Below are positions 3,769-20,481 of a stretch of DNA of 64,000 bases, one piece after another; the stretch's first letter is position 1; each line of letters begins with the position of its first letter. Position numbers and translations under genes: made by a program. The DNA lies in contig NZ_OZ241836.1 in the NCBI RefSeq assembly GCF_965202595.1, forward strand, positions 1,104,357 to 1,168,356, read 5' to 3'. This DNA comes from Candidatus Poriferisocius sp. (GTDB lineage: Bacteria; Actinomycetota; Acidimicrobiia; Acidimicrobiales; Bin134). The notes beneath the pieces were generated by a model. It was given only the letters and a program-made list of their open reading frames with translations. It did no database searches and was not told the DNA's origin.

Positions 3769-5580
3769 CTACCTACCGGGTCGGCGTTTCTGGACGCGGG
3801 CCCATTCGTCGCGCAGACCTACGGTGCGGTGGAACCGATCGGGGGCCTCGGGGTCGCGGGCGAAATAGCCGAGGCGCTCGAACTGGACCACCTGGCCGGG
3901 GGCGATGTCGGCCATGGCCGGCTCGAAGCGGGCCGTCTCCACGAGGCGGATGGAGTCGGGGGCCAGCGAGTCCATCGGATCGGTGCCGTCGGCACCGGGG
4001 TAAGGGTGGGTGAACAGGTGCTGGTAGAGCAAGGCCTGGCCGCGGTGGGCGTGGGCCGCGGATACCCAGTGGATGGTGGCCCGCACCCTGCGCCCATCGG
4101 GGGCTTGGCCCGATCCGGTGTCGGGGTCGTAAACACAGCGGACCTCGGTCACCCTGCCGTCTATGTCGGTTTCCACCCCGGTGCAGGTTACGAAGTAGCC
4201 CGATCTCAGGCGGACTTCCCGGCCGGGAGCCAGCCGGTAAAATTTGGGGGGCGGATCGAGCATGAAGTCGTCCCGTTCGATGTAGAGGACTCGTGAGAAC
4301 GGGACCTGCCGGGTACCCGCCGAGGGATCCTCGGGGTTGTTGGCGGCCTCCCGCATCTCCGTTTGGCCCTCGGGATAGTTTTCGATGACCAGCCGTAGCG
4401 GGTCGAGCACCGCCATCCGGCGCAGAGCCACCGCGTTCAGCTCCCGGCGGACGAAGGATTCCAGCAGCTCCACCTCCACGGTGCCGTCCACCCGGGCCAC
4501 CCCGATGTGGCGGCAGAACTGCCGGATTGCGTTTGGCGGGTAGCCCCTCCGGCGCAGACCTTGAAGGGTGGGCATGCGGGGATCGTCCCACCCGGATACA
4601 TGGCCTTTTGACACCAGCTCCGAAAGGCGACGCTTGGACAGCACGGTGTGAGTCAGGTTCAGGCGGGCGAACTCTGTTTGCCGGGGGCGATCCCCGGGCA
4701 GGTCGAGATGTTTTAGGAACCAGTCGTACAGCGGGCGGTGGGCATCGAACTCCAGGGTGCAGATCGAGTGGGTCACACCCTCCAGGGCATCGCTCTGGCC
4801 GTGGGCCCAGTCGTAAGTGGGATAGATGCACCATCGGTCGCCGGTGCGGTGATGGGTCTGGTGGCGAATGCGGTACAACACCGGGTCGCGCATGAGCATG
4901 TTCTCATGGGCCATGTCTATTCGGGCCCGCAACACCCGCTCACCGTCGGCGAACTCGCCGGCCCGCATGCGACGGAACAGGTCCAGGTTCTCATCAACCG
5001 TCCGGTTCCGCCAGGGGCTGTGGGTGCCCGGTTCGGTGAAGCTGCCTCGGGTGGCCGAGATGGTCGCCGCGTCCTGGTCGTCCACATAGGCCAGCCCGGC
5101 CCGGATCAGGTCTTCCGCCCAGTGGTAGAGCGGCTCGAAGTAATCGGAGGCGTAAAGGGTGCCCCGATCGGATTGGTAACCCAGCCAAGCCAGGTCGTTC
5201 TCAATGGCGGCGACGAAATCGGATCTCTCGGTCTCGGGGTTGGTGTCGTCCAGGCGGAGGTTGCAAGTGCCGTTGAACTCGCCGGCCAGGTCGAAGTTCA
5301 AACAGATGGACTTGGCGTGGCCGATGTGGAGATAGCCGTTGGGTTCGGGGGGGAACCGGGTCTGCACCCGACCGGCGAAAGTTCCCTCGGCGATATTCCG
5401 GTTGACCAAGGTGCGAATGAAGTCGCTGCGTTGGCTCGACTTGCCATCAACGAAGTCGCTGCGTTGGTTCGACTTGGTATCAATGAAGTCGCTGCGTTGG
5501 CTCGACTTGGCATCAACGAAGTCGCTGCGCTCGCCCGGTTCGGCATCCCCGGTGCTCCCCGCGCGGCTCATGGGCCCCAT
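3769..5580 (-). CDS. glnS: glutamine--tRNA ligase with repeat-bearing N-terminal extension
   Basis: PEPNGYLHIGHAKS (HIGH) and VLSKRRL (KMSKS-like) class I motifs, with GlnRS-like sequence throughout. ATG at 5580 (MGPMSRAG...). The rest of track ORF 3769..6348 overlaps the divergent amidohydrolase gene. Confidence 0.9.
   Translation of the reverse strand: MGPMSRAGSTGDAEPGERSDFVDAKSSQRSDFIDTKSNQRSDFVDGKSSQRSDFIRTLVNRNIAEGTFAGRVQTRFPPEPNGYLHIGHAKSICLNFDLAGEFNGTCNLRLDDTNPETERSDFVAAIENDLAWLGYQSDRGTLYASDYFEPLYHWAEDLIRAGLAYVDDQDAATISATRGSFTEPGTHSPWRNRTVDENLDLFRRMRAGEFADGERVLRARIDMAHENMLMRDPVLYRIRHQTHHRTGDRWCIYPTYDWAHGQSDALEGVTHSICTLEFDAHRPLYDWFLKHLDLPGDRPRQTEFARLNLTHTVLSKRRLSELVSKGHVSGWDDPRMPTLQGLRRRGYPPNAIRQFCRHIGVARVDGTVEVELLESFVRRELNAVALRRMAVLDPLRLVIENYPEGQTEMREAANNPEDPSAGTRQVPFSRVLYIERDDFMLDPPPKFYRLAPGREVRLRSGYFVTCTGVETDIDGRVTEVRCVYDPDTGSGQAPDGRRVRATIHWVSAAHAHRGQALLYQHLFTHPYPGADGTDPMDSLAPDSIRLVETARFEPAMADIAPGQVVQFERLGYFARDPEAPDRFHRTVGLRDEWARVQKRRPGR
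5416..5540 (-). repeat. 33-bp in-frame tandem repeat (about 3.8 copies) in the glnS 5' coding region
   Basis: AATGAAGTCGCTGCGTTGGCTCGACTTGCCATC-type units encode (K)SSQRSDF(V/I)D four times, immediately upstream of the conserved catalytic core. Confidence 0.9.
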
Positions 5581-5652
5581 CTTTGACCGATACCGGACCG
5601 GCCGGCAAGGTGTTTTATTTCTATGAGCGGCTGATTGGTGCGAAACTTGGGT

Positions 5653-6795
5653 ATGGCCTATTCGATCATCGACGTCGACACCCACATCACCGAGCCGGCC
5701 GACACCTGGACCAGTCGAGTTGCCGCCCGCCACCGTGACCGCGTGCCTCGAGTGGAGGTGATCGATGGTCGCCAGATCTGGTTGCTGGGCGATGACCGCA
5801 TCGGGGCGGTGGGCCCGACCGCTCCGGCCGGTTGGCCCAAGCCCATGCCCGACTCGCCGGCGGGCTATCACGAGGTGCATCCGGCGGCCTACGATGCCGA
5901 CGCTCGCTTGAAGCTGATGGATCGGCGGGGGGTATGGGCCGAGGTTCTGTATCCCAATGTGGGCGGGTTCGGTGCCCAACGGTTCTTGTCGATTGCCGAG
6001 GCCGATCTGAAGCAATCGTGCGTTCGGGCCTACAACGACTTCCTGGTGGAGTGGTGCAGCGCCGATTCCCGGCGGCTCATCCCGTCGATGGCCACCCCGT
6101 TCTGGGATGTGGATGGCGCGGTGGCCGAGGTGGAGCGGTGTGCCGCTATGGGCTACCGGTCGGTGAACTTCACCGGCGAGCCCCAGGTGTTCGGGCTGCC
6201 GTACCTGGGTGAGCCCCACTGGAACCCATTCTGGTCGGCGGTGTGCGATAACGACATGGTGGTGTCCTTCCACATCGGTAGCGGTGAGTTCAACTGGGAC
6301 CACACCCGGGTGGAGCGTCGAGGTTTCGCCGAGGCCTACGCCCTGCAATCGGTGGATCTTTTCACCAAGAACGGGATCCAGGTGTGCGATCTGTTGCTAT
6401 CGGGCGTGCTGCCCCGCTTCCCGAAGCTGCGGGTGGTGTCGGTGGAGTCGGGGATCGGCTGGCTACCGTTCATGCTGGAAGCGCTGGACCACCAGTTCAT
6501 TGAGGGGGGTGGTCCGAGGGAGCGGCCCGAGTTCGACAAGCTGCCCAGCGAGTACTTCGCGGAGCAGGTGTACACAACGTTCTGGTTCGAGGAGTCGGCC
6601 CCCCAGGATTTGCTGGGAAGCAGGATCCCGCTGGACAACGTGCTGTTCGAGACCGACTTCCCCCACCCCACCTGTCTGTACGACAACGTGCAGGAGAAGA
6701 TTGCGGCCAGCATCGGCCACCTGCCCCCCGAAGCCCGCCATCAGCTTCTCTGGGGCAACGCCGAGAAGCTCTACCGGGTACAAGCACCGGCCTGA
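5653..6795 (+). CDS. amidohydrolase-2 family metal-dependent hydrolase
   Basis: MAYSIIDVDTHITEP... N-terminus and ...FETDFPHPT near the C-terminus are typical of the ACMSD-like amidohydrolase_2 fold. Confidence 0.8.
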   Translation: MAYSIIDVDTHITEPADTWTSRVAARHRDRVPRVEVIDGRQIWLLGDDRIGAVGPTAPAGWPKPMPDSPAGYHEVHPAAYDADARLKLMDRRGVWAEVLYPNVGGFGAQRFLSIAEADLKQSCVRAYNDFLVEWCSADSRRLIPSMATPFWDVDGAVAEVERCAAMGYRSVNFTGEPQVFGLPYLGEPHWNPFWSAVCDNDMVVSFHIGSGEFNWDHTRVERRGFAEAYALQSVDLFTKNGIQVCDLLLSGVLPRFPKLRVVSVESGIGWLPFMLEALDHQFIEGGGPRERPEFDKLPSEYFAEQVYTTFWFEESAPQDLLGSRIPLDNVLFETDFPHPTCLYDNVQEKIAASIGHLPPEARHQLLWGNAEKLYRVQAPA

Positions 6796-6985
6796 TAGGT
6801 GTGGCCATGAGCGATCAATGGGACATAATTTCCAGCCACTACAGCAACCAAAAGTTGCTGCCTGATAGGTGATGACCATGAACGATCAATGGGACCGGCA
6901 AGCTGGTGTGGCCATGAGCGATCAATGGGACCGGCAAGCTGGTGTGACCATGAGCGATCAATGGGACCGGCAAGCCGATGTGGTG
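6791..6985 (+). repeat. compound junction repeat: a 70/71-bp duplication plus 36-bp x3 in-frame copies of the downstream start region
   Basis: CCTGATAGGTG..CCATGA.CGATCAATGGGAC occurs at 6791 and 6861. ATGAGCGATCAATGGGACCGGCAAGC units have ATGs at 6878, 6914 and 6950. The ATG at 6807 opens a 21-aa ORF that stops at 6870-6872. Confidence 0.85.
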
Positions 6986-8386
6986 GTGCTGGGTATGGGC
7001 GCGGCCGGATGTGCCGCCGCCATCGCCGCAACCGATGCGGGAGCGTCGGTTCTCCTGCTGGAGAAGATGCCCGAGGGCCGGGAGGGAGGCAATACCCGCA
7101 TCTCCGGAGGCATCTGGTTCAATAGTCTCGACCCCGACGGGATGGCGGTCTATCTGCGGTCGTTGTGCGGCCCTTATACCTTGCCCGAGCCGGTGGTGCA
7201 GGTGTGGGCCCAGGAGACCTACAAGAACACGGAGTGGCTGGAGAGCCTGGGTGTGACCCCCGGTGTTCATGCCGACTACCAGCCCGAGTATCCCGAGATG
7301 CCCGGTGCCGAGTTCTACGGAGGTTACCTGGGGGTAAACGGGGAGATGGGTCGGCAACTGCTGTTCAAAGCACTGTCGGCCGCCGTGCGGGACCGGGGGG
7401 TGGAAGTGCTGCTGGACACCCCGGCCAAAGAGTTGGTGACCGGTGAAGACGGCTCAGTCATCGGGGTGGTGGCCTCCTCTGGGGGCGCGCCGCTACGGGT
7501 GGGGGCCCGCCGGGGGGTGGTGCTGGCCACCGGTGGCTTTGAGAACAACCCGGAGATGGTGCGCGATTACCTGCAATTGCCCGGTTCCCCGGTGTGGGGG
7601 TCACCCGCCGGCACCGGTGACGGTATCAAGATGGCCCAGAAGGTCGGTGCCGATCTGTGGCACATGGACAACATGGCGGCCACCCTCGGCCTGGCGGCCG
7701 ATGGGTTCGAGGCCGGCATGTACGTAATGTTCATCTTCTCCCAGGGTTTCATATGCGTGGGCAACGACGGGCGACGACCCCATAATGAGATCCCTCCCCA
7801 AGGGCATGGCCACGGGCTGATAAATGGTGCCTACGAGCTGTTCCAGCGACGGCCCCTACAGGTGGTGTTCGACGAAGCCACCCGGCTCGCCGGCCCCATC
7901 TCACCCCCCAGGGAGATCCTCCCGGTGGGTTGGAACCTGCTCATGGAGGGCTACGAGTGGAGTGCCGACAACTCGGCTGAGATCGACAAGGGGTGGATCC
8001 TCGCCGGCGATACCCCCGCAGAGCTGGCTGAGCGGTTGGGGGTGGATCCCGAAGGGCTGGAGGCATCGGTGGAGGCGTGGAACCAGGCCTGCGCGGCCGG
8101 CCACGACCCGCTGGGCCGTCCCCGAGCCACCCTCACCCCGCTGGAAACACCTCCGTTCTACGGGTTCACCTCGGCCCCGCTTCTGGGTTGGACCAATGGT
8201 GGCCCCCGCCGCAACGAGAAGGCCCAGGTACTCGACCCCTTCGGTGAGGTCATCGGGCGCTTGTACGCCGCGGGCACGGTCAGCTCGACCTATAGCTGGT
8301 GCAAGGATGGTGGTTTCCACATCGGGGACGCTTTGGCCTTCGGTCGGGTGGCAGGCCGCAGCGCCGCCGCCGAAACACCCCGCTGA
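6950..8386 (+). CDS. FAD-dependent oxidoreductase (fumarate reductase / 3-ketosteroid dehydrogenase-like flavoprotein)
   Basis: DVVVLGMGAAGCAAAIAATDAGASVLLLEK dinucleotide fold, GGFENN, and a C-terminal GRLYAAGT motif. The start could be any of the in-frame repeat ATGs at 6872, 6878, 6914 or 6950. Confidence 0.8.
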   Translation: MSDQWDRQADVVVLGMGAAGCAAAIAATDAGASVLLLEKMPEGREGGNTRISGGIWFNSLDPDGMAVYLRSLCGPYTLPEPVVQVWAQETYKNTEWLESLGVTPGVHADYQPEYPEMPGAEFYGGYLGVNGEMGRQLLFKALSAAVRDRGVEVLLDTPAKELVTGEDGSVIGVVASSGGAPLRVGARRGVVLATGGFENNPEMVRDYLQLPGSPVWGSPAGTGDGIKMAQKVGADLWHMDNMAATLGLAADGFEAGMYVMFIFSQGFICVGNDGRRPHNEIPPQGHGHGLINGAYELFQRRPLQVVFDEATRLAGPISPPREILPVGWNLLMEGYEWSADNSAEIDKGWILAGDTPAELAERLGVDPEGLEASVEAWNQACAAGHDPLGRPRATLTPLETPPFYGFTSAPLLGWTNGGPRRNEKAQVLDPFGEVIGRLYAAGTVSSTYSWCKDGGFHIGDALAFGRVAGRSAAAETPR

Positions 8387-8435
8387 CCCAACCCACCAAC
8401 TCTCGACCATTCCCAACCAAAAGGGCCAAATCCAC

Positions 8436-8615
8436 TCAGTTCAACACCAGGCCCTCGAGAGCACCCTCATATCAGTTCAACACCAGGCCCTCGAGAGCAC
8501 CCTCATATCAGTTCAACACCAGGCCCTCGAGAGCACCCTCATATCAGTTCAACACCAGGCCCTCGAGAGCACCCTCATATCAGCTCAGCACCAGGCCCTC
8601 GAGAGCACCCTCGTC
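8436..8615 (-). repeat. 36-bp x5 tandem copies of the BVMO 3' terminus, each including the stop codon
   Basis: TCAGTTCAACACCAGGCCCTCGAGAGCACCCTCATA occurs four times (8436, 8472, 8508, 8544), followed by the real end TCAGCTCAGCACC... at 8580. Each copy reads ...GALEGLVL(N/S)-stop on the minus strand. Confidence 0.95.
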
Positions 8616-10385
8616 GCGCCAGGTTCTCAGTAGCTTGAAGAACTCCTGGGCACCGCCGCCGTAGGTGCCACCGAACCAGCCGGGGCCTTCGTCGGGCTTG
8701 CCTTCGTTGTTGTAGTAGCCAGGGGTGCATGACTCCAGGAAACCGGCCCGGCGGTAGGCCGATTCGAGGATGAGCCGTACCCAGTCGGCCTCGGCCTGCT
8801 CGGTGGGCTCAACGGTTTCGGCACCGGACGACAGCACCTGGTTGATGATGTAGGCCACGTGTTGACTCTGCTCGTTGTAAAGCTCGGTGAAGTTGGGGGA
8901 AACCCCCGACTGGATGCCGCCCATGTGAAGCAGGTTGGGGTATCCCCGGCTGATTACACCGTGGAAGGTGGACATGCCGTCGCTCCACCGCTCGGTCAGC
9001 GTAACTCCGCCCCGGCCGTGGATGTCGCAGCCGGCCCGGTGGGAGTAGTCGGTGCCCACCTCGAACCCGGTGGCGAATATCAAGCAATCCAGCTCGTACT
9101 CCCGGCCGCCTGCCACCACCCCAAGGGGGGTGATGCGCTCAACCCCCCGGCCATCGGTGTCCACCAGCGTGACGTTGGGACGGTTGAAAGTGGGTAGGTA
9201 GTCGTCATGGAAGCAGGGGCGCTTGCAGAATTGACGGTAGTAGGGCTTGAGCGCTTCGGCGGTGGTGGGATCTTTCACCAGCTCGTCAACTCGTGACCGG
9301 ATCTGTTCCATCTTCTGGAAATCGGCCAGCTCCATGGCTTCGGCCACCTCTTCGGGGGTGCCGAGGCGCGCACTCTCCCCCAGCGCGGTGAGGTTGCGCA
9401 GGATGTCGGTCCAGCCGTCGCTGACCAGATCCTCCTCCTGCATGCTGCCGGCCACGATGTGGCCGAAGTTCTCGATACGGTGTTGTTGCCAGCCGGGTTC
9501 CAGGGTGGTGGACCACTCCGGGTCGGTGGGACGGTTGCCCCTCACGTCGATGGACGACGGGGTTCTCTGGAATACGTAAAGGTGCCGGGCGGCCTCACCC
9601 AGATGGGGGATGCACTGCACCGCGGTGGCTCCGGTGCCGATCACCCCGACCACCTTGCCGGACAGCTTGGTCAGGTTCCCGTTGGTGTTGCCCCCGGTAT
9701 AGCTGTAGTCCCACCGGCTGGTGTGGAACGAATGGCCCTCGAAAGTCCCGAGGCCGCTGATGCCCGGCAGCTTGGGCCGGCTCAGCGGACCGATGGCCAT
9801 CACCACGAACCGGGCCCGCATCCGGTCCCGGTGGTTGGTGTGCAGCACCCACCGGTTGCCGGCCTCATCCCAGTGCATCTCGTGTACGCGGGTGCCGAAG
9901 CAGGCATCCCGGTACAGGTCGAAGTGGCGGCCGAGTGATTTGCAGTGCTCCAGGATTTCGGGACCGTAGGAGTACTTCTCCTTGGGCATGTAGTCCAGTT
10001 CCTCCAGCAGGGGCAAGTAGATGTACGACTCGATATCGCATTGCACTCCGGGGTACTGGTTCCAGTACCAGGTGCCGCCGAACTCGGCTCCGGTCTCGAT
10101 CATCCGGATGCTCTCCACCCCGTGCTGGCGCAGTCGCGCTCCCGCCAGCAAACCGCTGAAACCGGTGCCGATTATGGCTACATCCACCTCATCGGTGAGC
10201 GGGGCCCTGGTGATGCCGGCATCCGCGGGATCATCCAGATAGCGGGAGAACTTCCCGTCCGTAGCTACGTACTGGTCGTTGCCGTCGGCCCGCAGGCGCT
10301 TGTCCCGTTCCTGGCGGTACTTGTCCCTGAGGGCGCTGGGATTGAAACCCATTTGAGTGGCGGTGGAGGAGAGGTCGCGGGTCAT
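8580..10385 (-). CDS. Baeyer-Villiger (flavin-containing, NADPH-dependent) monooxygenase
   Basis: Contains GTGFSG and GTGATA Rossmann motifs and the BVMO fingerprint FEGHSFHTSRWD. Confidence 0.85.
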   Translation of the reverse strand: MTRDLSSTATQMGFNPSALRDKYRQERDKRLRADGNDQYVATDGKFSRYLDDPADAGITRAPLTDEVDVAIIGTGFSGLLAGARLRQHGVESIRMIETGAEFGGTWYWNQYPGVQCDIESYIYLPLLEELDYMPKEKYSYGPEILEHCKSLGRHFDLYRDACFGTRVHEMHWDEAGNRWVLHTNHRDRMRARFVVMAIGPLSRPKLPGISGLGTFEGHSFHTSRWDYSYTGGNTNGNLTKLSGKVVGVIGTGATAVQCIPHLGEAARHLYVFQRTPSSIDVRGNRPTDPEWSTTLEPGWQQHRIENFGHIVAGSMQEEDLVSDGWTDILRNLTALGESARLGTPEEVAEAMELADFQKMEQIRSRVDELVKDPTTAEALKPYYRQFCKRPCFHDDYLPTFNRPNVTLVDTDGRGVERITPLGVVAGGREYELDCLIFATGFEVGTDYSHRAGCDIHGRGGVTLTERWSDGMSTFHGVISRGYPNLLHMGGIQSGVSPNFTELYNEQSQHVAYIINQVLSSGAETVEPTEQAEADWVRLILESAYRRAGFLESCTPGYYNNEGKPDEGPGWFGGTYGGGAQEFFKLLRTWRDEGALEGLVLS

Positions 10386-10405: not shown

Positions 10406-10864
10406 ATGTCCTTCGAGGCCCGATTTGATCTACGAGGAGTTGACTGGACCCACATGGAGGGAGGTCCGGAGTTCGACTATCCCATCGAATACGATGTGGC
10501 TGTCCTCGGCTCGCAGCCAGATCATGGTTCACTCGACCTGCTGGTGCGGTTCGCCCCCAATTCCCACTGCCACTTCCACCGCCATGTGGCCGCCACCCGC
10601 ACCCTGGTGCTCCAGGGTGAGCATCACGTTTTCGATGTCGAGCCCGGCGGCGGGATCGTCCACAAGGTCAAGCCCGCTGGTACCTATGGCCAGAGCCCCG
10701 GTGGGGAGGTTCACATGGAGCGGGGCGGGCCCGACGGGGCCATCGTACTGTTCGCCCTGCACTCCCCCACCGGCGTGCTGTTCGAGTCGCTCGACAGCGA
10801 CCGCAACATCATGGCCGTTTCCACCATCGAGTCGATGGCCGAGGGGCCTCTCATGGGCGGCTAG
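10406..10864 (+). CDS. small cupin-like hypothetical protein
   Basis: A 152-aa ORF with an HCHFHRH...GEHH His-rich beta-barrel-like core. No confident family assignment. Confidence 0.45.
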   Translation: MSFEARFDLRGVDWTHMEGGPEFDYPIEYDVAVLGSQPDHGSLDLLVRFAPNSHCHFHRHVAATRTLVLQGEHHVFDVEPGGGIVHKVKPAGTYGQSPGGEVHMERGGPDGAIVLFALHSPTGVLFESLDSDRNIMAVSTIESMAEGPLMGG

Positions 10865-10865
10865 C

Positions 10866-10956
10866 CCGAACTTGTTGGATCGCGGACCTCATCGGATTAC
10901 CGAACTTGTTGGATCGCGGACCTCATCGGATTACCGAACTTGTTGGATCGCGGACC
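10866..10956. repeat. 34-bp tandem repeat (about 2.7 copies) starting 2 nt after the cupin stop codon
   Basis: CCGAACTTGTTGGATCGCGGACCTCATCGGATTA occurs at 10866, 10900 and 10934 (partial). It lies between convergent genes. Confidence 0.9.
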
Positions 10957-11004: not shown

Positions 11005-11472
11005 CTACCGCCGGGCGAAACCCGCGGTCACCGCCCTAGCTGTGGTGGCCAGCAGGGTCGGGGCAATGGGAAAGCAAGAGTTGGGGGTTCCCGCCGCGGC
11101 CCACACGGTGTCGTAGGCCAGCAGATCCTCGTCGATCCAGGTGGGCAGCGGGTTTACATGCCCGAACGGAGGGGTGCCCCCGATGGCAAAGCCGGTGGCC
11201 GACCGAACGGTTTCGGGGTCGGCCAGGCTTATCCGACCCCCGACCAGCGCTCCCAGGCGGTCGGTGTCCACCTGGTTGGTTCCCGAGGTGAGGGCCAGAA
11301 CCAACCGGGACGGAGAGGCGAACACCAGTGACTTCACGATCTGGCCCAAATCGCATCCCACGGCGGCAGCCGCATCGGCCGCCGTCCGGGTGCTCGCCGG
11401 GTACTGCACCAGTGCTACCGGAACCCCGAGTTCCCCCGCCGCCGCCCGGAACCGCTCGATTCCATCAGCCAT
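11005..11472 (-). CDS. YbaK/EbsC-type aminoacyl-tRNA editing (deacylase) domain protein
   Basis: A 155-aa protein with ...IVKSLVF...LTSG...GGTPPFGH..., typical of the YbaK/ProX fold. It overlaps the upstream MBL gene by 8 nt. Confidence 0.7.
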   Translation of the reverse strand: MADGIERFRAAAGELGVPVALVQYPASTRTAADAAAAVGCDLGQIVKSLVFASPSRLVLALTSGTNQVDTDRLGALVGGRISLADPETVRSATGFAIGGTPPFGHVNPLPTWIDEDLLAYDTVWAAAGTPNSCFPIAPTLLATTARAVTAGFARR

Positions 11473-12349
11473 GGCTGGTCACGGTTCCGGGGGAGGATCC
11501 CGGTGCGGGGGCTTGGAACACCCAACGGTTGCCGGTGCGGGACAGGTGGCCGCAACCGGGGCCGGCGAAGTGGGTGCCGAGGATGAGCACGCCGGAGTCG
11601 GCGTAGCGTTCCCGGAACTCCACCCGGGTGGCGGAGGCTCGTGACGGATCGTCGTCGGCGGTCATGATCCAATCCGGGGCGGCGAACTGCACCGGATGGT
11701 GGACCAGGTCACCGGTGATTACCGCCTCCTGGCCCCGGGATGAGATTTGGACGCTGACATGGCCAGGGGTATGGCCCGGCGTGGGCATGAGGCGGATCTC
11801 GCCGGTGACCTGGTGGTGACTGTCCACGAGGTCGGCCAAGCCGGCCTCCATTACCGGCTGCACAGCGTCGCCAAAGGTTACCGCTGCCCCCTCCGCCCCG
11901 GAGTCCCAGTAGTCGTACTCGGTGCGGTTGAACAGGTAGCGGGCGTTGGGGAAGGCCGGCACCCACTTGGCATCCACGAGGATGGTATTCCAGCCCACAT
12001 GATCAAAGTGCAGGTGGGTGCAGAGCACCACATCGATATCGGGGGGTTCATACCCGGCGGCGGCCAACTCGTCGAGGAATCCGGTGCCGAGGTGGCTCAT
12101 CTGGGGAACCATCTCGATGGGCCGGTTGCCGATGCAGGTGTCCACCATCACGGTTTGGCCCTCGGACTCCAGTACCAGGGCGTGAATGGACAGCGGCAGG
12201 TTGCCGGACTCCTCCATGAAGTGGGGTTTCAACCAGTCGGCGTTGGCCTCGAACACTGCCATGTCGGGGTTCGTGTACATGCCGGTGGCGGGGACGCTTT
12301 GCAGGGTCTCCCGTATCAGGGTGACCTTCACGTCACCGATTGGCATCAT
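11465..12349 (-). CDS. MBL-fold metallo-hydrolase (lactonase-like)
   Basis: Contains the HLHFDHVGWN zinc-binding motif and a downstream TPGHTPGH. Confidence 0.8.
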   Translation of the reverse strand: MMPIGDVKVTLIRETLQSVPATGMYTNPDMAVFEANADWLKPHFMEESGNLPLSIHALVLESEGQTVMVDTCIGNRPIEMVPQMSHLGTGFLDELAAAGYEPPDIDVVLCTHLHFDHVGWNTILVDAKWVPAFPNARYLFNRTEYDYWDSGAEGAAVTFGDAVQPVMEAGLADLVDSHHQVTGEIRLMPTPGHTPGHVSVQISSRGQEAVITGDLVHHPVQFAAPDWIMTADDDPSRASATRVEFRERYADSGVLILGTHFAGPGCGHLSRTGNRWVFQAPAPGSSPGTVTSHG

Positions 12350-12422
12350 GTCCGGGTGACCTTCACATCACCGATTGGCATCATGTCCGGGTGACCTTCA
12401 CATCATCAATTGGCATCATGTC
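12321..12422 (-). repeat. 35-bp x3 duplication of the MBL start codon region, creating two 12-aa ATGA-coupled uORFs
   Basis: ATGATGCCAAT(C/T)G(G/A)TGA(T/C)GTGAAGGTCACCC units have ATGs at 12419, 12384 and 12349. The upstream copies read MMPI(D/G)DVKVTRT-TGA, with the TGA overlapping the next ATG. Confidence 0.9.
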
Positions 12423-14258: not shown

Positions 14259-14277
14259 CCGGATTGCCCGGCGGTGC

Positions 14278-14357
14278 TGCTGTCTGGTGGTTTCGCTGTC
14301 CGGCGGTTTCGCTGTCCGGCGGTTTTGCTGTCCGGCGGTTTTGCTGTCCGGCTGGTT
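14278..14357. repeat. 16-bp x5 tandem repeat filling the convergent intergenic gap
   Basis: GCTGTC(C/T)GG(C/T)GGTTT(C/T) units lie between the UGSC stop (14258) and the dioxygenase stop (14364). Confidence 0.9.
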
Positions 14358-14363: not shown

Positions 14364-15572
14364 TCAGCCGTCCAGAGCCTGCATTTCCTCAGGGCTGCGG
14401 ATGCGGCCGCCGTCGCGGAAGAGGATGTCGTTGTAACCCTGGCCGGGGGGAATGAACTCGGCCCAGAGGGCCTTGTGGTAACTGATGTAGACCGTCCGGC
14501 GTCCCCCCGATTTGGGGGCAGCGGTGGGAGGAGGGGCGGCGTGCATGGTGTGGCCGAAATGGACGGTGACATCGCCGGGTGAGGCGTTGATGGCCACCGT
14601 GGGCCAGTTGTCGCGAACCTGGCGGGACCGGTTGGTGGAATTGTAGGAACCGGCCAGGAAATGAAGTCTGCCGTTGTCCTCGTTGCATTCATCGAGCTGG
14701 ATACCCACGTTGGCCGTGGGGCAGGTTATGGAGTGTCCCCCGGTGCCGCAGTCCCGGTGCCAGGGCAGGTCCGCCAGCCCCTCCACGATCCGGGGCAGCT
14801 TGATGACCACCGATACGCCATCACCCCTTTCGGGATAGGCGGCGAGATCATCCCCGGCCAGCGCGGCGATGGCATCCAGCCGACGATCGTCGGTCAACCC
14901 GAACATCAGTTCACTGCGGTCATCCATATGGGTGACCCGGCAGCACACCTCCTCACCGTCGGCGTTCACCGCCCACCAGGAACGGTGATCATCGGGGGTG
15001 GCCAGACTCCTCAGACGCTCCACCTCCTCCCGCAGATCCTCCACCTCCCCGGCGCTGAAGACCCCCCGGATGTGGAGGAATCCAGCTTCGGTTAGGAACC
15101 GGCGCATCTCCTCGGGATCATCGTCGGGAGCAAAGCTGCGGTCCAGGTCCACTGTGGGGGTCCATCCCTCATACAGGGGGCGGCCGTGGTACATGGCCAG
15201 CAGCACCGGCTCGAAGTCCTCGAACAGTCCGAAGTCGCCCCGAACCATTACTGCGGCCTCGGCATATAGCAGGCCGACCCAGGTCCACAGCTCGGCCACG
15301 TAGTTGCACCAATCCTGCTCGCTCACCTCCACCACTACATCGGCGTCGTCGCCGGGTCGGATCTCCACATCATCCTCGCCGACTATGTAGGTCACCGAAC
15401 GCCCGTCGATCAGCCGCCACGCGAAGCTCTTGGCCAGGGCCCCGGCTCCGATGCCGGCGGCCAGAGGCCCGTTGCCCGCAACCAGGCGTCGAGGCAACTC
15501 AACGGTGTGGAAGGAGTCGAAGTCCAAGGAGTCGAAAAAAGGAAGTCGAGGTGCGTGTTCCACAACAGCCAT
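14364..15572 (-). CDS. phytanoyl-CoA dioxygenase (PhyH) family Fe(II)/2-oxoglutarate oxygenase
   Basis: The C-terminal half carries a WHRD...H (LPWHRDCG ... VHFGHTMH) facial-triad-like pattern typical of PhyH. The N-terminal approximately 150-aa domain is unassigned. Confidence 0.65.
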   Translation of the reverse strand: MAVVEHAPRLPFFDSLDFDSFHTVELPRRLVAGNGPLAAGIGAGALAKSFAWRLIDGRSVTYIVGEDDVEIRPGDDADVVVEVSEQDWCNYVAELWTWVGLLYAEAAVMVRGDFGLFEDFEPVLLAMYHGRPLYEGWTPTVDLDRSFAPDDDPEEMRRFLTEAGFLHIRGVFSAGEVEDLREEVERLRSLATPDDHRSWWAVNADGEEVCCRVTHMDDRSELMFGLTDDRRLDAIAALAGDDLAAYPERGDGVSVVIKLPRIVEGLADLPWHRDCGTGGHSITCPTANVGIQLDECNEDNGRLHFLAGSYNSTNRSRQVRDNWPTVAINASPGDVTVHFGHTMHAAPPPTAAPKSGGRRTVYISYHKALWAEFIPPGQGYNDILFRDGGRIRSPEEMQALDG

Positions 15573-15682
15573 GGAGGCACTCTACCCAAAACTACCCCCT
15601 ATCCAAGCAACCCCTTGGGTAGGGCCCTGCCGGCGGGGACCATGACAGGGAGGCTAGGTCAAAAGGCCGTAGGGTGGTGGGG

Positions 15683-16405
15683 ATGGCTGAACAGGGTCAC
15701 CGGTTAACTGGCTGGGCCGGTCGAGACGAAGAGGCTCCGGCTCTGGTACCCGCGGCCACCGTGGTGCTTTTGAGAGACGCTCCTGGCGGCTTGGAGACCC
15801 TGATGATGAGGCGCAGTTCCCGGCTCAGCTTCGTCGGTGGAATGTGGGTGTTCCCCGGCGGCCGGGTGGACGACGGTGATTACCCTGCCGACCAACCCGA
15901 CGACATTTTGCGGGCCAGCCAGGCGGCCGCGGTGCGGGAGGCTGCCGAGGAGGCCGATCTGGCTGTCGCCGCCGACCAGCTTGTGCCCTATTCCCATTGG
16001 GTGCCCCCCACCACGATTCCCAAGCGATTCGCCACCTGGTTTTTTCTTGCCCCCGCACCCGCTGGTGCGGTGACCGTGGACGGGGGCGAGATAAAGGAGC
16101 ACGCCTGGTGGCATCCGGCCGAGGCCCTGGACCGCCATGCCGCCGGGGAGATCGAGATCGTTCCTCCCACCTACATCACCATCATGGAATTGGCCGAGCA
16201 CCCCACTGTCGCCGATGCCCTGGCTGCTGCTCACCGCCGGGCCGAAAACATCCCTCACTACGTTACCCACATCGCACTGGACGGAAAGGTTCCGGTGTCG
16301 TTGTGGCACGGCGATGCCGGATACGACACCCATGATCCCGGTGTTCCCGGCTCCCGTCACCGGCTCACCCTGGCGGAGGGTGGTTGGCGGTTCGAGCGGA
16401 CATGA
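15683..16405 (+). CDS. NUDIX hydrolase
   Basis: Nudix box GGRVDDGD...AAVREAAEEADL. The TGA at 16403-16405 overlaps the ATG of the next gene. Confidence 0.8.
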   Translation: MAEQGHRLTGWAGRDEEAPALVPAATVVLLRDAPGGLETLMMRRSSRLSFVGGMWVFPGGRVDDGDYPADQPDDILRASQAAAVREAAEEADLAVAADQLVPYSHWVPPTTIPKRFATWFFLAPAPAGAVTVDGGEIKEHAWWHPAEALDRHAAGEIEIVPPTYITIMELAEHPTVADALAAAHRRAENIPHYVTHIALDGKVPVSLWHGDAGYDTHDPGVPGSRHRLTLAEGGWRFERT

Positions 16406-17853
16406 GCGATTGCGTTCCCCTCCAAGCAGTGGCCCCCCGCCGGGCCGCGAAATTACGGGCAAAGCGGTGGCGTATCGCGAGTTGCGTTCCCCTCCAAGCA
16501 GTGGCCTCCCGCCGGGGGGTGGTTCTGTTCACGGCCGCCGTGGTTATGGCGATCATCGGTGCCTGCGGGTCTGGTTCCCCCGGCTCCCCCGGCTCCCCTG
16601 CCGCGGTCACACCTCCGGTAGTCTCCGAGCCCGGATTCGCGGTCACGCCGTACCCTGATCCCGGTTCGGTTGTCCATGCCGACCCGGTTTACCGGCTGGA
16701 CGGCAACCGGATAACAGAAGGCTCCGGGTTGGGTACCGGGTTCATTAACCAGGTCACTACCAAGGACTTGAGCCTGGATGATGTCCCCACCTGGATAACC
16801 GGGGCCAGTACCCCGGCAGGGGATGTCTGGGTGGTAGCCCTGGCTGACGGAACGACAGTGGGCTACCGCGTACCGGTTGGTGGGCAGCCGGTGGAGATCG
16901 ACATTGTCGGCGACCGGCTGAACCCCGGCCAACCGCCGATGCTGGCCATCCAGGGAAACTCGGTGCGCTTGGCCACCACCCCGGCCAACGCACTGTCCAG
17001 CGGTGTCCCGGTGTATCTCAACCAGGACCGCACCGCCTATGTGGACAACCTCCAGCGGTTCACCGTCCTGGAGGCCGACGGCACGCTGTGGCGCCCCGAT
17101 CTGGAAGTGCTGCCCGACACCCGGATGGTTCAGGTCAGCCCGGAGAAAGTGCTGTTACTGGCCGGACCCACCAACCGCTATCCCCATTCCGCCCTGGGTG
17201 ACAACCTGGAGGCCACTTCGGTGGTGGCGGTCACGGTTGGGGTGAACGAGCTCGAAACCATCTACCGATCCGGGGATGATGTCATCGAGACCATCGCCCC
17301 CCTGCTGGCCGATGTGGACGGGGACGGGATCGATGATGTGGTGCTCACCGTCAGCAACGATGCCGGAATCAGGATCGTGGTTGTTTCGAGCACCGGCGGA
17401 GGCGTGGTGGCAACCAGCGATCCCACCGACCGCCTGCTGGGCTGGCGGCAGCTCATCGCGGTGGGACCGCTGGGACCCGACGGGGGGACCGAGATCGCCG
17501 AGATCCTCCATCCCAGCACCGATGGCTCGGTAAGGTTCCTCAAGCGGAACGGACCCGGCCTGGATGTGGTCGCCCAGAAAGTTGGCTATCGATCCCACGA
17601 ATTCGGAACCCGCAACCTCGAGCAAGCCCTGGTTGTAGACGCCGATCGGGACGGCCATCCGGAAGTGGTCGTTCCCACCCTGGACCGGCAATCCATGGCC
17701 GGGGTGCGTCACGCCCCCGATGGGGCGGCGGAGATGTGGGTTCGCCCTCTGGGGGGGACGCTGGCCACCAACATCGCCGCTCTCACCCGTCCCGACGGTA
17801 CCTTATCCCTCGCAGCCGGAACCCGGGAAGGTTCGCTGCGTATATGGCAATGA
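16402..17853 (+). CDS. secreted lipoprotein with FG-GAP/VCBS-like repeats
   Basis: Lipobox-like ...VVMAIIGAC followed by GSGSPGSPGSP. Contains DVDGDGIDDVVL and DADRDGHPEVVV Ca-binding-like repeats. The N-terminus contains a 72-bp in-frame duplication. Confidence 0.6.
   Translation: MSDCVPLQAVAPRRAAKLRAKRWRIASCVPLQAVASRRGVVLFTAAVVMAIIGACGSGSPGSPGSPAAVTPPVVSEPGFAVTPYPDPGSVVHADPVYRLDGNRITEGSGLGTGFINQVTTKDLSLDDVPTWITGASTPAGDVWVVALADGTTVGYRVPVGGQPVEIDIVGDRLNPGQPPMLAIQGNSVRLATTPANALSSGVPVYLNQDRTAYVDNLQRFTVLEADGTLWRPDLEVLPDTRMVQVSPEKVLLLAGPTNRYPHSALGDNLEATSVVAVTVGVNELETIYRSGDDVIETIAPLLADVDGDGIDDVVLTVSNDAGIRIVVVSSTGGGVVATSDPTDRLLGWRQLIAVGPLGPDGGTEIAEILHPSTDGSVRFLKRNGPGLDVVAQKVGYRSHEFGTRNLEQALVVDADRDGHPEVVVPTLDRQSMAGVRHAPDGAAEMWVRPLGGTLATNIAALTRPDGTLSLAAGTREGSLRIWQ
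16407..16516 (+). repeat. 72-bp in-frame duplication (about 1.5 copies) of the lipoprotein 5' end
   Basis: TTGCGTTCCCCTCCAAGCAGTGGCC(C/T)CCCGCCGGG occurs at 16410 and 16482. It encodes CVPLQAVA(P/S)RR twice. Confidence 0.9.
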
Positions 17854-17981
17854 GCACCTGGCTATCCGGTAGTGCGTATATGGCAATGAGCACCTGGGTA
17901 TCCGGTAGTGCGTATATGGCAGTAAGCACCTGGGTATCCGGTAGTGCGTATATGGCAGTAAGCACCTGGCTATCGGGTAGT
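17838..17981 (+). repeat. 36-bp x4 tandem copies of the lipoprotein 3' terminus, filling the whole intergenic gap to the ATPase
   Basis: GCGTATATGGCA(A/G)T(G/A)AGCACCTGG(C/G)TATC(C/G)GGTAGT occurs at 17838, 17874, 17910 and 17946. Each copy keeps RIWQ-stop, as CAA TGA or CAG TAA. Confidence 0.95.
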
Positions 17982-17993
17982 TTCCCATCCTGA
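17850..17993 (+). other. repeat-encoded 47-aa linker ORF, overlapped at both ends with the flanking genes
   Basis: The ATG at 17850-17852 overlaps the lipoprotein TGA at 17851-17853 (ATGA). The ORF runs in frame through all four repeats (STW(L/V)SGSAYMA(M/V)). Its TGA at 17991-17993 overlaps the ATPase ATG at 17993-17995 (TGATG). Confidence 0.6.
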
Positions 17994-20401
17994 TGGCCTC
18001 TGCTACTGCCTTCGATCCGCAAGCAGGACCGGACCCTGTTCTGGGACTCACCAGCGCCCAGGTGGCGGAGCGGGTTGCTGGTGGGCGCACCAACAAGGTG
18101 CCGGACGCCCCGGTGCGCACGCTGCCTCAGATCTTGCGGGCCAACGTGTTCTCCCCCGTGAACGGCATAATGCTGGTGCTGTTCGCGGCCATTCTGGTGG
18201 CTGGTTTCCCCCGTGACGGGCTGTTCGTAGGGGTGGTGATATCCAACGCCATCATCGGAGTGGCCCAGGAGATTCGGGCGAAACGAGAGCTGGACCGCCT
18301 CGCGGTGCTCAGCGCCCCCAAGGCTCGGGTGGTACGCGACGGGGACATCCACGAGGTTGGGGTTAGCGAGGTGGTGGCCGAGGAGGTCCTGGAGTTGACC
18401 CCCGGGGACCAGGTGGTGGTGGACGGGGTCGTTCTTGCTTCCACGGGCTTGGAGGCCGACGAGTCATTGCTCACCGGTGAGGCCGATCCCATCGGCAAGG
18501 ATGTTGGTGATGAGCTGCTGTCGGGCAGCTTTGTGGCCGCCGGCCACGGGCGGTACCGGGCCACCCGCATAGGGGCCGAGTCCTATGCCAGCTCGCTGTC
18601 GGAGGAGGCCAAGCGTTTCTCACTGGTCAACAGCGAGCTGCGCCGGGGCATCGACACCGTGCTGTGCTGGCTCATAGTCATCATCCCCCCGGCCTCGGCA
18701 CTGCTGATCCTGGTACTGCTCGACACCGAGGACCGTTGGCAGAACGCCCTTCAGGGTACGGTGGCTGCCGCCGTGGCCATGGTGCCCGACGGTCTGGTGC
18801 TGCTCACCAGCCTCTCGTTCGTCGCCGGAGTGGTGGCTCTGGCCCGCCGGCGGGCGCTGGCCAAGGAGCTGGCCACCGTGGAGTTGCTGGCCCGCATCGA
18901 CATGCTGTGCCTCGACAAGACCGGCACCATCACCACCGGCCACATCAGCCTCAGCGGGGTGGAAACCCTGCCCGGCGTGGATCCGGCCGTGGTCGCCACC
19001 GCACTCGGAGCCATGGCCCATGCCGATGAGGCTCCCAACGCCACCATGCTGGCGGTTCGCGATGCTTACCCCACCCCCGATGGCGGTGGCTGGGCACCGG
19101 TGGGAACCACGCCTTTTTCCAGTTTCCGCAAGTGGTCGGCCGTTGAGTTCCGTCACAACGGTGCCTTCTACTTCGGTGCTCCCGACGTTATCGCCGGTGA
19201 CCATCCCGAGGTTATGGACCGGGTGGTTGGACACGCCGAAACGGGACGGCGCACACTTCTGCTGGCTCACGATTCCGAGCCACTCACCGGCGATGCCCTG
19301 CCCGAGAACCGGACACCTCTGGCTTTGATCCTGCTGGAGGACACCATCCGTCCCGACGCTCCCGAGATTCTGGATTTCTTCCGCGAGCAGGGGGTGAATC
19401 TCAAGGTGATCTCCGGTGACCACACCGCCACGGTGGCCGCCGTGGCCCGAAGAGCCGGCATTCCCGACTCCCACGCCTGCTTCGATGCCCGGGATCTGCC
19501 CGAGGACATCGACGAGATGGCCGGCGTGCTGGCCGGCAACACGGTTTTCGGTCGGGTCACCCCCCGCCAGAAGCAAGCCATGGTCAGGGCACTCCAGTCG
19601 AAGGGTCACACCGTGGCCATGACCGGTGACGGGGTCAACGATGTGCTGGCTCTGAAGAACGCCGACATGGGTATCTCCATGGGCAGCGGATCGGCTTCCA
19701 CCCGGGCGGTGGCCCAACTGGTGTTGCTCGACAATTCGTTCGCCACCCTGCCCGAGGTGTTGGCCCAGGGACGCAAGGTGATCAACAACGTGGAGCGGGT
19801 GGCCAACCTGTTCGTGACCAAGGCTTCCTATGCCGTGCTGCTCACGGTGCTGGTGGGGATGTTCACGGTGGAGTACCCGTTCCTGCCCCGCCACCTCACC
19901 CTGGTGGGCACGTTCTCCATCGGCGTGCCCGGCCTGTTCTTGGCCCTGGCCCCCAGCACCGAGCTGATCCGCCCCGGCTTCTTGGTCCGGGTGTTGCGGT
20001 TTTCCCTGCCGGCCGGCGGCCTGGCCGCATTCGCGTCCTTCACCGTCTATGAGATCGCCCGCCGCCACGATGAGGTCACCCTGGGTGAAGCCCGCACCGT
20101 GGCAACGTTCACCCTGCTTGGGGTGGGGCTGGTGATCCTGGTGGTGATCAGCCGCCCGCTGCAACCGTGGAAGATCGGGTTGGCCGTGGCCATGGCCGGG
20201 GCATACATGGTGGTGATGGGGTGGCCGTGGATGAGGGAGTATTTCGCGCTGCACCCTCCCCCGCTCTGGATGTGGGGACCGACCATGGCCGCGGTGGCCA
20301 TTGCCGGTGCCGGTGTGGTCACCATTCCCCGGGCCTTGAGGAGATACCAGGATCGGTTGCCGGGGCCCGGAAGAAGTAGTCGGGGTTACCAGGGGCGTTA
20401 A
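17993..20401 (+). CDS. cation-translocating P-type ATPase (HAD-IC superfamily)
   Basis: Contains the DKTGTIT phosphorylation motif, TGDGVNDVLALKNADMGISMG, TGEADP, and multiple TM segments. Confidence 0.9.
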   Translation: MASATAFDPQAGPDPVLGLTSAQVAERVAGGRTNKVPDAPVRTLPQILRANVFSPVNGIMLVLFAAILVAGFPRDGLFVGVVISNAIIGVAQEIRAKRELDRLAVLSAPKARVVRDGDIHEVGVSEVVAEEVLELTPGDQVVVDGVVLASTGLEADESLLTGEADPIGKDVGDELLSGSFVAAGHGRYRATRIGAESYASSLSEEAKRFSLVNSELRRGIDTVLCWLIVIIPPASALLILVLLDTEDRWQNALQGTVAAAVAMVPDGLVLLTSLSFVAGVVALARRRALAKELATVELLARIDMLCLDKTGTITTGHISLSGVETLPGVDPAVVATALGAMAHADEAPNATMLAVRDAYPTPDGGGWAPVGTTPFSSFRKWSAVEFRHNGAFYFGAPDVIAGDHPEVMDRVVGHAETGRRTLLLAHDSEPLTGDALPENRTPLALILLEDTIRPDAPEILDFFREQGVNLKVISGDHTATVAAVARRAGIPDSHACFDARDLPEDIDEMAGVLAGNTVFGRVTPRQKQAMVRALQSKGHTVAMTGDGVNDVLALKNADMGISMGSGSASTRAVAQLVLLDNSFATLPEVLAQGRKVINNVERVANLFVTKASYAVLLTVLVGMFTVEYPFLPRHLTLVGTFSIGVPGLFLALAPSTELIRPGFLVRVLRFSLPAGGLAAFASFTVYEIARRHDEVTLGEARTVATFTLLGVGLVILVVISRPLQPWKIGLAVAMAGAYMVVMGWPWMREYFALHPPPLWMWGPTMAAVAIAGAGVVTIPRALRRYQDRLPGPGRSSRGYQGR

Positions 20402-20471: not shown

Positions 20472-20481
20472 GGGTCGGATC

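Follow-up and report, generated by a model that had tools for sequence, protein, structure and literature searches.

The window analysed here comprises 64,000 nucleotides of contig NZ_OZ241836.1 from Candidatus Poriferisocius sp., an Acidimicrobiales strain that is found in runs including sponge metagenomes and whose relatives carry the label Candidatus Poriferisocius. Positions below are those of the window, and repeats are referred to by their first position. A gene map built on codon usage, with a Pfam check on 40 of the proteins, contained 54 genes and was 89% coding. Our subject is a set of short duplications at the borders of these genes, exemplified by the minus-strand gene for a flavin (Baeyer-Villiger-type) monooxygenase, whose stop codon is followed by further copies of the last 36 nt of the gene (8436–8615). 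The initial annotation had described four such copies, all ending in ALEGLVLN-TGA, as decoy 3' ends. This is confirmed by Tandem Repeats Finder, which reports 8436–8612 with a period of 36, 4.9 copies, 98% matches and a score of 340, and by the minus-strand translation of the gene end and array, which reads ...WRDEGALEGLVLS and a stop, followed four times by YEGALEGLVLN and a stop. Between decoy and native unit 4 of 36 positions are changed (GAC>TAT, CTG>TTG and AGC>AAC), orthologues of the enzyme end in EGSLEGLELS, and the distal edge of the array coincides exactly with the end of a TGA.

The relatives used for comparison include a sister genome (L082/L084, about 86–89% nucleotide identity) and a closer, syntenic relative of about 92% nucleotide identity in runs X8 and X9, which was compared through the joints of its alignments and not letter by letter.

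Location and anatomy of the repeats

About 25 local repeats are present in the window, and 22 of them have periods within the 25–100 nt range scanned for density, which gives 0.34 direct repeats per kb compared with 0.007 per kb in a background of 79 unrelated loci totalling 1.35 Mb. A gene start or stop is touched by 17 of the 25, against 3.9 ± 1.8 at random placement (p < 5e-5), and repeats make up 23% of the intergenic DNA of the window. They lie at stops (8436, 17837, 20367, 21976, 23571, 45294 and 47921) and as frequently at starts (6798–6975, 12319, 29195, 41313 and 47364), on stop-to-start junctions including ancestral ATGA overlaps (1375, 16410, 42856 and 55900), and on overlapping convergent stops (45294 and 47921); the units at 1375, 21976, 42856 and 55900 contain both a stop and a start. 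Decoy 3' ends are real, but the term is too narrow, since arrays are equally common at gene starts. The repeats at 10866, 14268 and 56681 are located wholly between genes, and five lie inside genes, where their periods (33, 33, 42, 69 and 72 nt) are in every case a multiple of three and where those of known context occupy linkers (CoA-transferase, kinase) or terminal extensions (the N-termini of a tRNA synthetase and an amidohydrolase). Of 36-nt segments placed at random, 88% would lie within a gene, as against about 20% of the surviving repeats. Housekeeping genes are hit too, among them gatA/gatB, ilvD and an aminoacyl-tRNA synthetase gene. Gene starts, linkers and intergenic stretches carry such repeats as well, which shows that the process that makes them is not about stop codons.

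Two forms can be distinguished. Tandem arrays have periods of 33, 33, 33, 34, 35, 35, 36, 36, 36 and 39 nt, with further examples at 42, 48 and 50 nt. In the second form, A-B-A, two arms (A) of 31–45 nt that are 97–100% identical (82% in an old example) flank an unrelated filler (B) of 24–39 nt. The arrays at 8436, 10866, 47921 and 5419 have the layout (A B)n A. In seven A-B-A events, six in the window and one in X8, A and B are each about 36 nt and sum to 71–72 nt. Events beyond these seven have sums of 34–69 nt, and those of the sister genome 36–66 nt; the window examples that depart from the 36+36 ruler are 45+24, 31+31, 30+20 and 23+11, and those of the sister are 30+34, 34+26, 33+33, 28+10 and 31+5, together with periods of 41–58 nt. 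Units are 100% identical in ten arrays and 89–98% identical in others, and clean duplications are bounded by 0–2 nt of microhomology. The extra units at 8436, 45294 and 5419 are often identical to one another yet 11–27% different from the native unit, mostly through GC>AT changes.

The fillers are novel at their sites. In all three cases that could be polarised B is missing from the outgroup, namely at 16410 (from L082), at 47921 (from X8) and in the event of X8 at 46760 (from the window). In 48 + 2 alignment and shuffle tests B was not significantly similar to the flanking sequence, to A or to reverse complements of these, the lowest p being about 0.05. The filler of 29195 is single-copy in the two metagenomes of greatest depth, and exact 26-mers of four B cores had no match in IMG/VR, a search of limited sensitivity. 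The GC content of B is 59%, compared with 65% for the window.

Neither sequence nor structure unites the units. The best motif found among the 24 units, gapped or ungapped, occurs in 5 of 24 against a null of 4–6, and with no shared motif a type IIB-like restriction enzyme cutting out 32–36-bp fragments was rejected. Fold z-scores over ten units range from −0.5 to +1.3 with no stable hairpin, no terminator-like site or promoter consensus was found within 8000–9000, and there was no match to Rfam families or tRNAs. An intrinsic terminator or a structured repeat resembling repetitive extragenic palindromes was rejected on these grounds. Stop and start codons are scattered over the unit, from roughly the third to the last base, so that there is no codon register, and a ribosome-footprint-like origin with a fixed register was rejected as well.

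Table 1. Coordinates of the monooxygenase gene end and of the repeats in the window.
Feature	Position	Strand	Remarks
Flavin (Baeyer-Villiger-type) monooxygenase gene	8580–10385	−	homologues named cyclohexanone monooxygenase or flavin-containing monooxygenase
Native terminal 36 nt of monooxygenase gene, DEGALEGLVLS-TGA	8580–8615	−	stop codon 8580–8582
Four identical 36-nt decoy units, YEGALEGLVLN-TGA, directly downstream of native stop	8436–8579	−
Four 36-nt units over stop (17851–17853) of FG-GAP-like gene 16402/16501–17853	17837–17981	+	CAA-TGA twice, then CAG-TAA twice
A(34)-B(37)-A(34) at end of P-type ATPase gene 17993–20401	20367–20471	+	stop straddles arm edge
Two identical 48-nt units, each with aldehyde dehydrogenase stop (CTA) and start (CAT) of peroxiredoxin-like gene	21976–22072	−
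Older A(38)-B(34)-A(38) at stop of amidohydrolase gene 23665–24939	23571–23680	−	arms 82% alike
Three identical 39-nt decoys, NMHFGTCITLIQ-TAA, of PknB-like kinase end	45294–45410	−	native VVDFGTCIKLITRPE-TAA, 45411–45458
(A30+B20) twice plus A at two convergent genes with ancestrally overlapping stops (CTAG)	47921–48050	.
Old array of three units (38–40 nt, about 75% alike) across stop-to-start junction	55900–56016	−	stops TAA (real), TAG, TCA (lost)
17-nt imperfect repeat, about 34 nt apart, at stop of ilvN-like gene 37170–37697	37133–37183	−	weak, 1-nt indel
A(31)-B(31)-A(31) over ATGA stop/start overlap (genes 1448–2752 and 580–1389)	1375–1467	−
Three in-frame 33-nt units (FVDAKSSQRSD-like) near N-terminus of Glu/Gln-tRNA synthetase gene 3769–5580	5419–5517	−	gene identified by Pfam
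Three to four copies of FAD-dependent oxidoreductase gene start region (MSDQWDRQA...)	6798–6975	+	native start is the last ATG, 6950
Three 35-nt units with start of metallo-beta-lactamase-fold gene 11465–12349	12319–12422	−
In-frame A(35)-B(37)-A(35) just past ATGA junction (NUDIX gene/FG-GAP-like gene)	16410–16516	+
Two 33-nt in-frame units near N-terminus of amidohydrolase gene 23665–24939	24848–24912	−
A(36)-B(36)-A(36) at start of amidohydrolase gene 28449–29213	29195–29302	−
In-frame A(45)-B(24)-A(45) (69 nt), interdomain linker of double CoA-transferase gene 30307–32997	31687–31800	+
A(32)-B(39)-A(32) at start of ilvD (39667–41358)	41313–41415	−
Two 33-nt units over gatA/gatB ATGA junction	42856–42925	−
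A(36)-B(36)-A(36), in frame, juxtamembrane linker of PknB-like kinase gene	46299–46406	−
Single copy in window; A(37)-B(35)-A(37) in X8 relative	46760–46796	−	X8 contig steps back 46796 to 46760, 35 unmatched letters between
Two identical 35-nt units at kinase gene start	47364–47435	−
2.7 copies of 34-nt unit between convergent genes	10866–10956	.	begins 1 nt past TAG of cupin gene 10406–10864
Intergenic array, period 16, 5.6 copies, between two convergent stops	14268–14357	.
Two 42-nt units (89% alike) within unannotated gene 48038–48958	48215–48295	−
Intergenic array, period 17/52, between divergent genes	56681–56778	.

Start-side arrays such as 6798 will systematically mislead the annotation of start sites. 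The public gene call L081 begins the FAD oxidoreductase (6878–8386, plus strand) at the first decoy ATG and so triplicates its N-terminus, and the orthologues begin at the third ATG (6950). Next to the unannotated gene that contains the 48215 repeat lies a 1-kb stretch without a confident gene (48958–50009), with an (AC)11.5 microsatellite at 49202–49224 and an ORF at 49242–49658 that has no Pfam match.

Occurrence in relatives and age

The repeats are restricted to part of the lineage. The sister genome has 0.22–0.37 repeats per kb; relatives L001, L083 and L085 have none, and L086 has one in 22 kb. The arrays of the sister lie mostly at other junctions (for example period 41 in 4 copies at L082 16217 and period 37 in 3.8 copies at L084 18902). 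Three junctions are hit in both sister and window, namely those downstream of the monooxygenase, at the enoyl-CoA hydratase junction and at the FG-GAP-like gene. The junction at 1375 holds a clean 53-nt duplication in the sister, and at 16410 L082 is without B and without one A.

Extra units at six loci are missing in the 92% relative. At 8436 its alignment restarts exactly at the native stop (8580), and the decoys are missing in L001 also; at 5419 the 33-aa insert is missing from both L001 and X8, the latter skipping 99 nt; at 6798 X8 has 16 nt replacing 6798–6944 (147 nt); at 24848, where the microhomology is 1 nt, it has one unit fewer and skips 33 nt; at 47921 it has one A and no B, with 7 nt in place of 107; and the decoy at 37133 is missing. 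At 17837 X8 is 72 nt, or two units, shorter, and the A-B-A at 23571 is aligned across with small gaps only. The 92% relative in turn has a private A-B-A at window position 46760–46796, an independent 72-nt event. The repeat events are of mixed age and independent origin, and are ongoing in at least three related genomes.

The repeat junctions are well supported by independent data. Runs X1, X3, X4, X5 and X13 do not differ from one another and have unitigs that end at the arrays, unit-junction unitigs are shared by five or more independent runs with word depths of up to about 5000x, and that of 8436 was found in four independent public runs with raised word depth. X1–X5 and X13 represent one strain, with no base differences over the roughly 23 kb examined (X13 partially), in runs labelled with three host organisms and from three studies. 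Copy-number variation was sought in this material: among the runs of the identical strain no variant was seen, the word-depth ratios differing between runs without being decisive, and between the window and the relative at about 92% identity copy number does differ. An assembly or sequencing artefact, at which the name of the contig might hint through low coverage in one assembly, is barely credible given identical unit junctions in five or more independent runs, and the same low estimate covers the variable and template repeats of a diversity-generating retroelement, whose layout a near-copy just downstream of a gene 3' end does resemble. The 40 proteins scanned include no reverse transcriptase domain, the differences between units are not confined to adenines (C/T, G/A, G/T and indels all occur), so that such an element was rejected, and both ideas have to contend with dozens of loci that each repeat a unit of their own, often at 5' ends.

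Several differences in gene content were noted alongside the repeats. Several arrays stand at junctions whose gene content differs among relatives (8391–8580, 11433–12409 and 5615–6949). At the junction corresponding to 17837, L084 has a 4.3-kb insert (5796–9740) with a methyltransferase-HNH fusion and a DUF222-HNH endonuclease, and other relatives have about 50 nt only. The NAD-dependent DNA ligase LigA (50009–52813, plus strand) is of a long form of 934 aa with two HhH domains and is 75% identical to its sister counterpart, the monooxygenase and ATPase being about 91% identical; the long form with its duplicated HhH domain occurs in array-poor relatives too and was rejected as the cause of the arrays. 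Two minus-strand RCC1-repeat proteins (58001–60082 and 62447–63709) are built of repeats of 111 nt (37 aa), and after each comes a 174-nt repeat pair (59609–59934 and 63224–63550). They look eukaryote-like and are possibly on an island, in a stretch of lower GC (56–62%) that includes an AbiEi antitoxin gene (60817–61548).

Fate of the copied stop codons

Real and decoy units were compared in the frame of the real gene. Two differences at 17837 and two at 23571 are all silent, as is the single difference at 1375 and at 20367. The array at 8436 shows one silent and one non-synonymous change as well as an altered codon at the boundary (S>N and D>Y), 45294 has diverged strongly (K>T, VVD>NMH and the loss of 9 nt), and at 55900 one decoy stop is TAG and the other has been lost (TCA). 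The stop-to-stop differences listed in the initial annotation are largely as described: TGA/TAA with CAA/CAG between the units at 17837–17981, GIAA-TAG against GIAA-TAA at 23570–23685 (real end GGC..GCG-TAG and decoy GGT..GCG-TAA, 72 nt apart), TAA kept in three copies at 45294, and an array at 55903–56010 in which the stop is not fully kept. The decoys at 45294 also give the convergent gene 44879–45304 a new stop. The TAA-to-TAG substitution proposed at 20367–20471 is a boundary effect, since the arm ends after TA and the third base (A in the filler, G in the flank) lies outside it. A repeat is present at the decoy end claimed at 37133–37192, but it is an imperfect one of 17 nt with a 1-nt indel.

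Before polarisation, 7 of 8 differences in young arrays are silent, with a rough p of about 0.001 if some 30% of random changes are silent. This is what might be expected if the decoy ends were functional and selected, whether as back-up terminators, as read-through or alternative C-termini, or as spacers uncoupling overlapping genes. The periods at 8436, 17837, 21976, 23571 and 45294 (36, 36, 48, 72 and 39 nt) are likewise in frame, five arrays (1375, 16410, 42856, 45294 and 47921) separate ancestral gene overlaps, and the ATPase now uses an extended end. Polarisation with L082/L084 as outgroups changes the picture. The orthologue of the FG-GAP-like gene ends CAG-TGA in L082, so that at 17837 the real copy changed CAG>CAA and the decoys underwent one G>A (TGA>TAA); at 23571, with GGC...TGA in the orthologue, the decoy changed GGC>GGT and the real copy most likely TAA>TAG; and at 1375, with CAC in the orthologue, the real copy changed CAC>CAT. 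About half of the silent differences therefore fall on the branch of the real copy, where changes are silent because only silent ones can pass. The decoy branches of young arrays carry 3 silent against 1–3 non-silent changes and those of old arrays many non-silent ones, a pattern that cannot be told apart from neutral decay in which transitions are favoured. The idea that stops are kept by silent-type change under constraint is not upheld by these figures. In a stop codon, one to two of the three possible transitions yield another stop.

Function is further contradicted by peptides that change freely at 8436 and 45294, by the stop lost at 55900, by the occurrence of the same repeats at starts, in linkers and between genes, by the orthologous sites of relatives that have no arrays and no sign of cost, and by the failure to find a terminator-like or conserved RNA feature; we regard selection for functional ends as highly improbable. 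That the decoys are read at some frequency, as the initial annotation also considered, is likewise not supported, and no run of RNA data was found to contain the organism. The copied stops are most simply read from these sequences as inherited, a unit that contains the stop carrying it by descent into each copy, and the small sample gives no sign of protection. Decoys that show no difference from the real end keep its stop trivially, and in older ones frame or stop is lost. A decoy stop that looks conserved is not in itself a sign of function.

The other proposal in the initial annotation, that decoy copies are exchanged with the real terminus by recombination, agrees better with the data, in that copy number differs between relatives, the array at 21976 appears homogenised and the end of the ATPase gene appears to have been reset. 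At 21976 the two units are identical at 48 of 48 positions; the 92% relative aligns across both unit positions with small insertions and no skip of 48 nt, and a more distant genome has an equally long, strongly diverged stretch there, which suggests homogenisation as judged from alignment joints and not from the letters of the relative. No relative shares the C-terminal extension of 14 aa, RLPGPGRSSRGYQGR, with which the P-type ATPase now ends, and this indicates that gene ends are being reset. In L084, L085 and L086 the ATPase gene is followed by an enoyl-CoA hydratase gene that is missing in the window (20401–20482). The peroxiredoxin (AhpC/TSA-like) gene next to the 21976 units (21515–21985, minus strand) has an in-frame TGA at the expected peroxidatic cysteine (..YPKASTPG, stop, TIQG..) and probably encodes a selenocysteine peroxiredoxin; its orthologue in L084 has been split by gene callers into two genes (15511–15792 and 15850–15981).

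Origin of the repeats and relation to known systems

We put at roughly 0.6 the probability that the decoy ends are by-products of a DNA-level duplication process in one subclade of sponge-associated Acidimicrobiia. Many short local duplications of about 33–39 nt, and up to about 50 nt, would arise either adjacent to the original or at a distance from it, with novel filler of at most about 39 nt in between. Purifying selection would then clear nearly all events inside genes, and the survivors would be those that straddle a stop or start and leave one intact gene end, those that are intergenic, and those that are in frame in a disordered linker. Such a filter would account for the location of the repeats, the in-frame rule and the harmlessness of stops or starts that are copied. 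Where the stop is part of the unit, every copy would receive it. The arrays would subsequently expand, contract and become homogenised through unequal recombination or conversion, and the remaining extra units would decay with a GC-to-AT bias. As founding event we favour a staggered or resected break at which both overhangs are filled in and the ends are joined, sometimes with filler.

Break fill-in and joining is preferred to replication slippage on account of the scarce microhomology and the presence of filler. Slippage and unequal crossing-over alone, in a weakly selected symbiont and with no special founding step, would produce arrays like variable-number tandem repeats (VNTRs), and could explain the arrays of 3–5 near-identical units, the variation in copy number between relatives at 17837 and the identity of units that depart together from the native one; the 3.04-Mb genome, the smallest among the listed large contigs of the clade apart from one of 2.93 Mb (most are 3.1–4.6 Mb), would fit erosion. 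We consider this account quite unlikely, as slippage needs a prior repeat where the founding duplications have 0–2 nt of microhomology, cannot make unrelated B segments, would not cluster periods at 33–39 and 69–72 nt, and does not explain why close relatives of similar lifestyle are nearly free of arrays.

Several observations fit the duplication and break-repair account poorly. The 71–72-nt sum of seven A-B-A events is a ruler that plain break repair does not predict. A source for B was not seen in the window or in 86 fetched loci, where there were chance matches of 14–20 nt only. Gene-end-spanning repeats number 17 against 3–4 that are wholly intergenic, where a simple filter tolerating events outside genes expects about half; a binomial estimate of this excess gives p of about 0.002, weaker if two 1-kb gaps contain genes. 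The edges of several arrays fall within 0–2 nt of a stop or start codon. Some extra units are identical to one another and 11–27% different from the native, though a 92% relative lacks them, and would need either fast decay with recent amplification or an inaccurate founding copy. The silent excess of 7 of 8 before polarisation is suggestive, in a sample too small to exclude weak constraint. The 36+36 regularity, the mild gene-end excess and the codon-abutting edges together leave room for an integrase of the ruler type.

Such an integrase, an ectopic counterpart of Cas1-Cas2 adaptation at CRISPR loci (short palindromic repeats, clustered and regularly interspaced) or a relative of it, would attack with a stagger of about 36 bp and insert about 36 nt to give A-B-A; a staggered cut without insert would give tandem duplications of 33–39 nt, and selection would again leave the events at gene borders. 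The seven events of 71–72 nt with A and B near 36 nt, the ten tandem arrays with periods of 33–39 nt, the minimal microhomology, and fillers that are novel in three polarisable cases, locally unrelated and, for the one tested, single-copy in the metagenome are all as this would have it. Integration of spacers outside CRISPR arrays, a non-canonical reaction, is a topic of PMC6698737 and PMC7054753. Nivala et al. in 2018 reportedly described ectopic spacer integration giving "neo-CRISPR" loci. The likeness extends to the repeat-spacer-repeat order, the duplicated target flanking a novel insert and the little target homology needed. The differences are that many events in the window and in the sister genome are off any one ruler, that there are spacer-less tandem copies, and that there is no protospacer match in the window and fetched loci, in metagenomes (one B) or in IMG/VR (exact matches, four B cores). 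To our knowledge, duplication of a repeat without a spacer is not a product of Cas1-Cas2. Each A is private to its locus, the units share no motif and are unstructured, and a locus has at most a single kind of spacer, multi-copy arrays repeating one B; a CRISPR array as such was rejected, each A-B-A having one spacer and its own A. A scan of 40 proteins of the window, which covers 64 kb of a 3.04-Mb genome, revealed no cas gene. On balance the integrase in this form is unlikely. Slightly less doubtful, though still improbable, is the wider idea that a lineage-specific enzyme system whose ruler is about 36 nt writes 36-nt duplications, with or without novel inserts of about 36 nt, across the chromosome of this clade. 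It could resemble an integrase, perhaps one akin to CRISPR adaptation, or be of an undescribed kind. If that were true, selection would leave its marks mainly at gene ends, where they would remodel N- and C-termini, uncouple overlapping genes and add back-up stops and starts, and it would be a bacterial counterpart of the unexplained formation of tandem repeats in Borg elements, with which it could share a mechanism.

The break fill-in route itself has a eukaryotic precedent. There, paired nicks and end joining give small tandem duplications, for which Schimmel et al. are said to have shown in 2021 that breaks are filled in by Pol alpha-primase, and in bacteria end joining by Ku/LigD has a primase-type polymerase. 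Duplications of tens of bp, without microhomology and with optional filler between the copies, are common to both cases, whereas the fixed 36+36 length is unpredicted by that route. We know of no demonstration of break fill-in duplications at such density or in this lineage. Supply et al. reportedly described in 1997 the VNTRs of Mycobacterium tuberculosis that belong to the mycobacterial interspersed repetitive unit (MIRU) type, which measure 40–100 bp and lie at intergenic junctions within operons. MIRU reading frames overlap the upstream stop and downstream start, and the elements form one dispersed family with a consensus and a copy number that varies by lineage. The present arrays resemble them in lying at junctions with the stop and start of their neighbours, and their copy number differs between relatives of about 92% identity, with no variant seen among runs of the identical strain; a MIRU-like dispersed family was rejected because each locus duplicates its own sequence and no motif is shared by the 24 units. 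Nothing specific was found in the literature on tandem duplications at gene borders in bacteria, in sponge symbionts or in Acidimicrobiia.

Among described phenomena the closest are the pervasive tandem direct repeats of Borg elements, the extrachromosomal elements of Methanoperedens (PMC9879509). These repeats are described as locus-specific, near-perfect, recent, fast-evolving, independent in origin and nearly absent from close relatives; the arrays may begin within the terminal part of an ORF or be intergenic, units inside ORFs are divisible by three, and arrays are flanked by partial repeats around a unit centre without visible source (Schoelmerich et al. 2023, PMC9879509). Locus-specific near-perfect units, recent independent origins, in-ORF multiples of three and a sourceless centre (B) are common to both systems. 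Borg repeats are also said there to be enriched in A, and the units in the window have an A content on the sense strand of 0.25 against 0.17 for the window, a figure that has no matched control and that has to be read against gene borders being AT-richer anyway. Unlike the linear archaeal extrachromosomal Borgs, the host of the present arrays is a GC-rich (65%) bacterial chromosome with housekeeping genes; about 20% of the arrays lie in ORFs here as against about half in Borgs; and copy numbers here are low (2–5), with a strong border bias and many extra units that depart from the native. The single-spacer A-B-A class with its 71–72-nt sum has no counterpart in the portion of the Borg study consulted (PMC9879509).

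The extra gene ends are a real observation, the functional reading of their stops is not supported, and the underlying phenomenon is unusual. If the density in the window were genome-wide, about a third of the gene junctions in a bacterial symbiont would carry fresh duplications of 33–72 nt, at roughly 50x background. The arrays amount to a natural experiment on the insertions that a compact genome tolerates, and they supply proteins with new N- and C-terminal sequence, separate genes that overlapped, and give rise to annotation errors such as starts at a decoy ATG and extended genes. The availability of array-rich and array-poor sister genomes provides a bacterial system in which the origin of Borg-type repeats can be attacked.

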